From assembly GCF_054482525.1 (NCBI RefSeq), contig NZ_CM137006.1: a DNA stretch of 64,000 nucleotides, one strand, 5' to 3'. Position 1 is the first letter of the stretch. Each line of letters opens with the position of its first letter. A model generated the notes under the pieces. That model did no database searches, had not been told where the DNA came from, and worked only from the letters and a program-made list of their open reading frames with translations. Position numbers and translations under genes: made by a program. This document shows, piece after piece, positions 52,747-54,074 of this stretch.

Positions 52747-54074
52747 ATGGCAATGTTCGGTTTTCCTCACTGGCAGTTAAAATCGACCTCTACAGAGAGC
52801 GGCGTGGTCGCGCCGGATGAACGATTGCCGTTTGCTCAGACGGCAATAATGGGCGTTCAACACGCGGTAGCGATGTTTGGCGCGACGGTGTTAATGCCGA
52901 TTCTGATGGGCTGGATCCCAATCTTTCCATTTTAATGTCGGGGATCGGCACGTTACTGTTTTTCTTTATTACCGGCGGGCGCGTCCCCAGTTATCTCGGT
53001 TCCAGCGCGGCTTTTGTCGGCGTGGTGATTGCCGCGACGGGCTTTAACGGTCAGGACATTAACCCGAATATCAGCATTGCGCTGGGCGGGATTATCACCT
53101 GTGGGCTGGTTTATACCGTCATTGGCCTGGTGGTGATGAAAATCGGTACGCGCTGGATTGAACGGCTGATGCCGCCGGTGGTGACGGGTGCGGTGGTGAT
53201 GGCGATTGGCCTGAACTTAGCGCCTATCGCAGTGAAAAGTGTATCGGCTTCGGCCTTTGATAGCTGGATGGCGGTAATGACGGTGCTGTGTATTGGGCTG
53301 GTGGCGGTGTTTACCCGTGGCATGATCCAGCGGTTATTGATTCTCGTGGGATTAATTGTCGCCTGTTTGCTTTATGGCGTGATGACCAACGTTTTAGGGC
53401 TGGGAAAAGCCGTCGATTTTACTTTCGTCAGCCATGCTGCCTGGTTCGGTTTGCCACATTTTTCCACTCCTGCTTTTAATGGTCAGGCAATGATGCTGAT
53501 TGCGCCCGTGGCGGTGATTCTGGTGGCGGAAAACTTAGGCCATCTCAAGGCGGTCGCCGGGATGACCGGACGCAATATGGATCCATATATGGGGCGGGCA
53601 TTCGTGGGCGATGGGCTGGCGACGATGCTTTCCGGCTCTGTCGGCGGTAGCGGCGTGACCACCTATGCTGAAAATATCGGTGTGATGGCCGTGACAAAAG
53701 TCTACTCGACGCTGGTGTTTGTTGCTGCTGCCGTCATCGCCATGCTGTTGGGCTTTTCGCCGAAATTTGGCGCGCTGATTCATACCATTCCAGCACCGGT
53801 GATTGGTGGTGCATCAATTGTTGTGTTCGGGCTGATTGCCGTCGCAGGCGCAAGGATCTGGGTACAAAACCGTGTCGATTTAAGCCAGAACGGTAATTTG
53901 ATTATGGTCGCAGTAACCTTAGTGCTGGGCGCGGGTGATTTTGCTCTCACGCTAGGCGGTTTTACGTTGGGAGGGATCGGTACAGCAACCTTTGGCGCGA
54001 TTTTACTCAATGCGTTGTTAAGCAGAAGGTTGGTTGACGTTCCACCGCCAGAAGTTGTTCATCAGGAGCCATAA
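52747..54074 (+). pseudogene. rutG: pyrimidine permease RutG (NCS2 family), apparent -1 frameshift near 52911
   Basis: N-terminal 63 codons (MAMFGFPHWQLKST...PILMG) end at a stop at 52933..52935; the remainder continues in the +1 frame from MSGIGTLLFFFITGG; span is 1328 nt, one short of 443 codons. Confidence 0.75.

Follow-up and report, generated by a model that had tools for sequence, protein, structure and literature searches.

The DNA analyzed here is a 64,000-nucleotide stretch of an E. coli chromosome (the window), in which the genes putP-putA-rutR-rutABCDEFG-ymdF-wrbA-yccJ-agp are found in this order. The repressor gene rutR is located on the minus strand at 47706..48344, and the rut operon diverges from it on the plus strand, with rutA at 48632-49723, rutB at 49723-50415, rutC at 50427-50813, rutD at 50821-51621, rutE at 51631-52221, rutF at 52232-52726, and rutG in the last position. 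The latter encodes the Rut-pathway transporter for uracil and thymine (PMC6308229, PMC8113886). RutR and RutA-F showed no internal stops and were the same as the proteins of PCN033, a porcine ExPEC isolate (serogroup O11, phylogroup D; PMC4578781), with the exception of one substitution in RutD, G23S; rutA-F and rutR are intact, as the preliminary description of this DNA had stated. A G+C-rich hairpin at 54082..54102, between rutG and the convergent ymdF, has an eight-pair stem with seven of the eight pairs G-C and T-rich tails on both strands, and it is likely the terminator of the rut operon. No gene of the operon follows rutG, so a frameshift within it has no downstream polar target.

The reading frame of rutG opens with the ATG at 52747 and, according to both the sequence and the list of open reading frames, runs into a premature TAA at 52933-52935, after 62 codons. 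The first 55 codons are native and end in ...AMFGATVLMPILMG, and these are followed by seven out-of-frame codons, WIPIFPF, so that the translated product is 62 aa long and has the C-terminal end ...PILMG+WIPIFPF. This 5' fragment (52747..52935, plus strand) covers the cytoplasmic N-terminus and TM1, including Q38-H39. The other 387 native codons (Leu56 to Pro442) are found with the natural stop at 52911..54074 on the plus strand, out of frame with the rutG start, and contain a second open reading frame at 52935-54074 that encodes 379 aa, MSGIGTLLFFF...HQEP. The span 52747..54074 measures 1,328 nt versus 1,329 nt for the intact rutG of PCN033. These data agree with the start, the stop, and the single missing nucleotide given in the preliminary description, which had also assigned the 3' part to the +1 frame; a separate frame is indeed used, but the offset is +2/-1 (52935 vs 52933). 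The frame break is a direct reading of the sequence, and chance is therefore not at issue.

The missing base was located by megablast of the interval 52700-54100 against 5,426 complete E. coli genomes. Three near-identical genomes, PCN033, SCU-102, and 19KM1776, each aligned 1,401 query bases to 1,402 record bases, and the base-by-base comparison with all of them showed a single gap in rutG, where the reference ATGGGGCTGGATCC is replaced by ATGGGCTGGATCC in the window. One G is gone from a GGGG run, leaving GGG at 52908-52910 (plus strand, codon Gly55), and the run is GGGG in every comparable genome. Gly55 is kept as GGC, and the first altered residue is Leu56, changed to Trp. A one-base loss near ggg-c-tgg, at 52908..52914, had been proposed beforehand along with a comparison with related strains, and the alignment placed the gap inside that context. 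No compensating indel was found downstream in rutG when the 1,401-base query was compared with the three genomes. Relative to intact orthologues, then, the rutG frame is broken and nothing restores it, which is the pattern of a frameshift pseudogene. A GATC (Dam) site lies at 52914-52917, 4 nt 3' of the G run.

To place the break in the protein, we used the alignment of RutG with UraA, which was nearly full length (E ~1e-73) and ungapped around the break, with RutG residue n corresponding to UraA residue n-15. RutG Gly55 aligned with UraA His40 and Met64 with Phe49, which puts the break at the TM1/TM2 junction. TM1 and its Gln38-His39 motif are in the 62-aa piece, the 379-aa piece begins inside TM2, and both products lack native residues 56-63; no single chain joins the TM1 Gln-His motif to TM2-14. 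Mutagenesis has shown that the Gln-His motif matters in NAT-family transporters. The profile TIGR03616, the NCBIfam equivalog for RutG, has a curated cutoff of 758.65 bits, and intact PCN033 RutG, which differs by the extra G alone, scored 843.5 bits. Both fragments stayed below the cutoff: the 62-aa one scored 84.7 bits over profile positions 1-57, and the 379-aa one 726.2 bits over positions 64-428. Neither polypeptide covers the whole profile above 758.65 bits. With the break at the TM1/TM2 junction of a 14-helix NCS2 permease, neither fragment should be capable of transport, and this position and the scores of the two pieces favor a real pseudogene.

Next, the window was compared base by base with the three relatives, and a change was considered private to the window when PCN033, SCU-102, and 19KM1776 all agreed against it. 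In the interval 40700-64000, three differences from each near-identical genome were found, two SNPs and the rutG gap. The SNP at 50887 was common to the three comparisons and is thus private to the window, and the other SNP was in each case private to the comparison genome (46802 in PCN033, 44054 in SCU-102, and 46595 in 19KM1776). Along the 64 kb, we found four private events: 31405 G>A, 50887 G>A, the rutG deletion, and an IS1 insertion in csgC. Two of them fall in the rut operon, the rutG deletion and the change that generates RutD G23S, and the number of private SNPs was similar to that of the relatives. The rutG deletion was the sole single-base indel in the 64 kb relative to the three genomes, which argues that the assembly is not generally error-prone.

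The substitution at 50887 (G>A, plus strand) affects the GLGGSG loop of RutD, which follows strand 1 of the alpha/beta-hydrolase fold. The 81-nt stretch around it had no 100% match among 5,399 complete genomes. G23S is a non-conservative change and, judged from this comparison, private to the strain. The TIGR03611 score dropped by 3.8 bits, from 409.7 to 405.9, and the scores with PcaD models dropped by 4-5 bits. RutD is dispensable in the laboratory (PMC8113886). The change at 31405 is synonymous in ycdX, converts GATC, a Dam site, into AATC, and was not seen in any complete E. coli genome. Both private SNPs and the rutG deletion each affect a G on the plus strand.

The IS1 copy, of 768 bp, is located at 24787-25554, flanked by the 9-bp target-site duplication CTCTGCATA at 24778-24786 and 25555-25563, and interrupts the minus-strand gene csgC, which encodes a curli chaperone, with the break after approximately codon 40. 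This junction was found in no complete E. coli genome, and the IS1 copy is absent from PCN033, SCU-102, and 19KM1776. The relatives have lesions of their own: yceH of PCN033 carries a private 4-bp frameshift, an extra AGCA unit, and is annotated as a pseudogene (36910-37561 of record L004; window position 3650), and the window, SCU-102, and 19KM1776 retain an intact yceH. In SCU-102, the DUF2726 gene beside tRNA-Ser has an annotated internal stop (6998-7684 of record L008, which corresponds to about position 33241 of the window) and is intact in the window; a SCU-102-private SNP is found at window position 33241.

To establish how rare the deletion is, an 81-nt query across the lesion was matched to 5,410 complete E. 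coli genomes. None of the approximately 5,410 genomes reached the 100% identity expected for the deletion allele, and all the matches listed spanned 82 record bases against 81 of the query (79 against 78 in one partial match), i.e., the extra base was present. In addition, the 379-aa 3' product was absent from a large protein collection, no contig with the deletion allele in the genetic background of the window is on record, and there was no exact match to the allele in JGI metagenome contigs.

Outside the window, the 62-aa product is recorded in two contigs, both from a single other lineage. One of them, from the Logan assembly SRR13248084, carries the identical deletion of one G from the four-G run in DNA that is about 2% divergent from that of the window, and it agreed with FHI_NMBU_11 at 21,140 of 21,141 positions, the rutG deletion being the sole difference. 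So clean a k-mer assembly is most simply explained by accurate reads, and the deletion very probably occurs in nature. In the FHI_NMBU_11 lineage, rutB is frameshifted by a change from TTT to TT and annotated as a pseudogene (6790-7481 of records L006/L007; window position 50136), and three further complete genomes, along with SRR13248084, were near-identical to FHI_NMBU_11 across the rutB locus. Because of this frameshift, the Rut pathway was already broken in the second lineage with the deletion. We found nothing in the literature on SRR13248084 or FHI_NMBU_11. It could be proposed that loss of RutG is repeatedly selected after impairment of the Rut enzymes, since continued pyrimidine import would feed a pathway accumulating toxic intermediates as a consequence of the rutB frameshift or RutD G23S, and that the same deletion in two lineages represents convergent adaptation; we consider this quite improbable.

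Other lesions of rutG were also found in E. coli. A nonsense allele that changes Leu63 from TTA to TAA (2687-2689 of records L010/L011) was indexed in 122 blocks of a public assembly collection, with 84 contigs for the main variant, and was present in no complete RefSeq E. coli genome. Human blood isolates AH20I049 and UID2404240036 have an internal rutG deletion of about 100 bp, described in RefSeq as 'frameshifted' (1378-2600 of records L018/L019), and the same junction was found at 100% identity in the type strain ATCC 11775, MS7163, MS8345, ZJ3920, and others; the 127 records in the band of at least 99% identity are an upper bound on the carriers of this allele. The allele is carried by a B2 lineage to which the type strain belongs, and its carriers include a group of human ExPEC genomes. 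A further product, with the peptide …GLDPIFPF, is consistent with the loss of one C from a CCC run, as deduced from the peptide. Judging from these genomes, rutG loss is common and tolerated in wild E. coli. Literature searches for 'rutG pseudogene' gave no relevant report. A mutational hotspot at codons 55-63 was considered and rejected, since grouping proteins by length and identity brings together exactly those truncations that leave about 60 aa.

A different kind of lesion was found in four unrelated assemblies (GCA_009741525.1, ERR10497683, SRR12115218, and SRR33714333; records L014-L017), where CTGGATCC is replaced by CTGATCC in rutG. In all of them, the GGGG run is kept, and many other genes are broken. 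This change looks like a recurrent, methylation-linked consensus error of long reads at the Dam site.

The preliminary description had named a real pseudogene and a sequencing or assembly indel as the alternatives, and these two are still the leading explanations. Taking these results together, we consider that rutG of the window is a real, recent, strain-private pseudogene generated by slippage, with a probability of roughly 0.55; most of the remainder goes to a sequencing or assembly artefact, and the other explanations share the rest. A real mutation is favored by the single uncompensated gap relative to three near-identical genomes; by the scarcity of other changes in the 64 kb, where the deletion is the only 1-bp indel and the rest of the divergence from the consensus amounts to two SNPs and one IS1 copy; by the persistence of the identical deletion in a clean contig of an unrelated lineage; by the behavior of the noisy assemblies, which lose a different G and keep GGGG; by the tolerance of rutG loss in the wild, where the gene is dispensable; and by RutD G23S as a second private change in the rut operon.

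The main competitor is an error of sequencing or assembly, in which a consensus of the long-read or 454 type would have under-called the homopolymer; the true rutG would then be intact, with 442 codons. We regard this as a substantial possibility, somewhat short of an even chance. The lost base belongs to a G run, with a GATC site 4 nt away, and a homopolymer beside a Dam site is a classic context for long-read consensus errors. Since the contig runs through the IS1 copy, long reads were probably used; moreover, one of the two private SNPs, 31405, is also in a GATC, the four noisy assemblies show spurious 1-bp deletions only a few bases away in rutG, and neither the deletion, sought in about 5,410 complete genomes, nor the source genome itself is represented in the RefSeq complete set. 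A singleton of this kind, with no recorded contig in the same background and no metagenome match, weighs against a real mutation. However, no second single-base indel was found in the 64 kb despite many longer homopolymers and Dam sites, and the same deletion is found in the otherwise perfect 21-kb contig of the other lineage. A nanopore artefact at the Dam site is weakened, as the recurrent deletion removes a base from the GG of GGATC and not from the four-G run.

It could also be thought that the split gene is functional, either because the 62-aa TM1 peptide and a 379-aa restart product assemble or because ribosomes shift by -1. The first possible restart codon is the ATG at 52935, native Met64, which overlaps the premature stop as TAATG (52933-52937), an arrangement that can support translational coupling, and the alignment with UraA places the break in an inter-helix loop. 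Nevertheless, inspection of the sequence revealed no Shine-Dalgarno-like sequence before this ATG, and neither an X XXY YYZ heptamer nor a prfB-like site in 52908-52935; lacking a ribosome-binding sequence and a slippery site, rescue of rutG by restart or frameshifting to a significant degree is unlikely. The 62-aa peptide ends in seven wrong residues, neither piece includes native residues 56-63, a three-G run is far too short for transcriptional slippage, and the arrangement is not conserved, with no complete genome at 100% identity. A working split gene is thus very improbable. A programmed frameshift or recoding site was likewise rejected, with no slippery site and no conservation among the complete genomes.

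Least probable of all is a role of the G run as a contingency (phase-variable) switch, or as a selected hotspot, by which RutG is turned off repeatedly: the identical deletion in two unrelated lineages, one with rutB already broken and the other with RutD G23S, the several independent lesions at codons 55-63, and a possible benefit from a lower influx of pyrimidines with toxic Rut intermediates would fit it, but the 4-nt tract is well below the lengths of known phase-variable loci, the lesion cluster is an ascertainment effect, the three closest relatives have GGGG, the off state is in no complete genome, and the three-G allele is limited to the window and one Logan lineage, a handful of occurrences in very large collections that is about what neutral recurrence predicts.

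If the mutation is real, replication slippage would have removed one G from the four-G run at codon 55, leaving rutG as a recent pseudogene private to the strain. Translation from the normal start would then yield a 62-residue peptide consisting of the N-terminus, TM1, and seven wrong residues, and a restart at the Met64 ATG would give a protein without TM1 and the Gln-His motif, with no working permease predicted from either. With rutG at the end of rutABCDEFG, the RutA-F enzymes would presumably still be produced. The expected cost is the loss of RutG-mediated uptake of uracil and thymine under nitrogen limitation, which UraA and nucleoside uptake may partly cover. UraA is a separate uracil permease of E. 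coli (PMC3809563, PMC6308229). The preliminary view that a real lesion would deprive the pathway of its dedicated importer is reasonable, but the effect may be mild, given this second uracil permease.

If the pseudogene is real, poor uptake of free uracil and thymine is to be expected in this phylogroup-D, PCN033-like strain when nitrogen is limiting, with the Rut enzymes retained, and rutG should be annotated as a pseudogene; if the lesion is an error, a single base has to be corrected in the record. The repeated loss of rutG in wild E. coli, including the lineage of the type strain, fits a dispensable accessory importer. The lesion is an ordinary pseudogene or an artefact and not a new mechanism, and it has little importance beyond the annotation of the strain; many E. 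coli genomes already carry annotated rutG lesions of this kind.

When compared with known systems, the window shares locus, neighbors, and DNA with the intact RutG of E. coli, and its rutG is that of PCN033, SCU-102, and 19KM1776 except for one base; the difference is that the frame is broken at codon 55/56 and both fragments are below the family score. UraA (PDB 3QE7, 5XLS, 8OMZ) is a uracil:H+ symporter homologous to RutG over nearly the full length, but its gene is a separate one found elsewhere in the genome, outside the rut operon and outside the window. The SRR13248084 allele has the same deletion, 62-aa product, and premature stop with an overlapping ATG; it differs in its background, with about 2% DNA divergence, a K-12-like allele, and a frameshifted rutB. 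The allele with the internal deletion is, like the pseudogene proposed here, a loss-of-function lesion of rutG in wild isolates, and the Leu63 TAA allele truncates the protein at codon 63, where the product of the window ends. Both the deletion of about 100 bp and the TTA>TAA allele are common to many isolates per lineage, whereas the lesion of the window is private.
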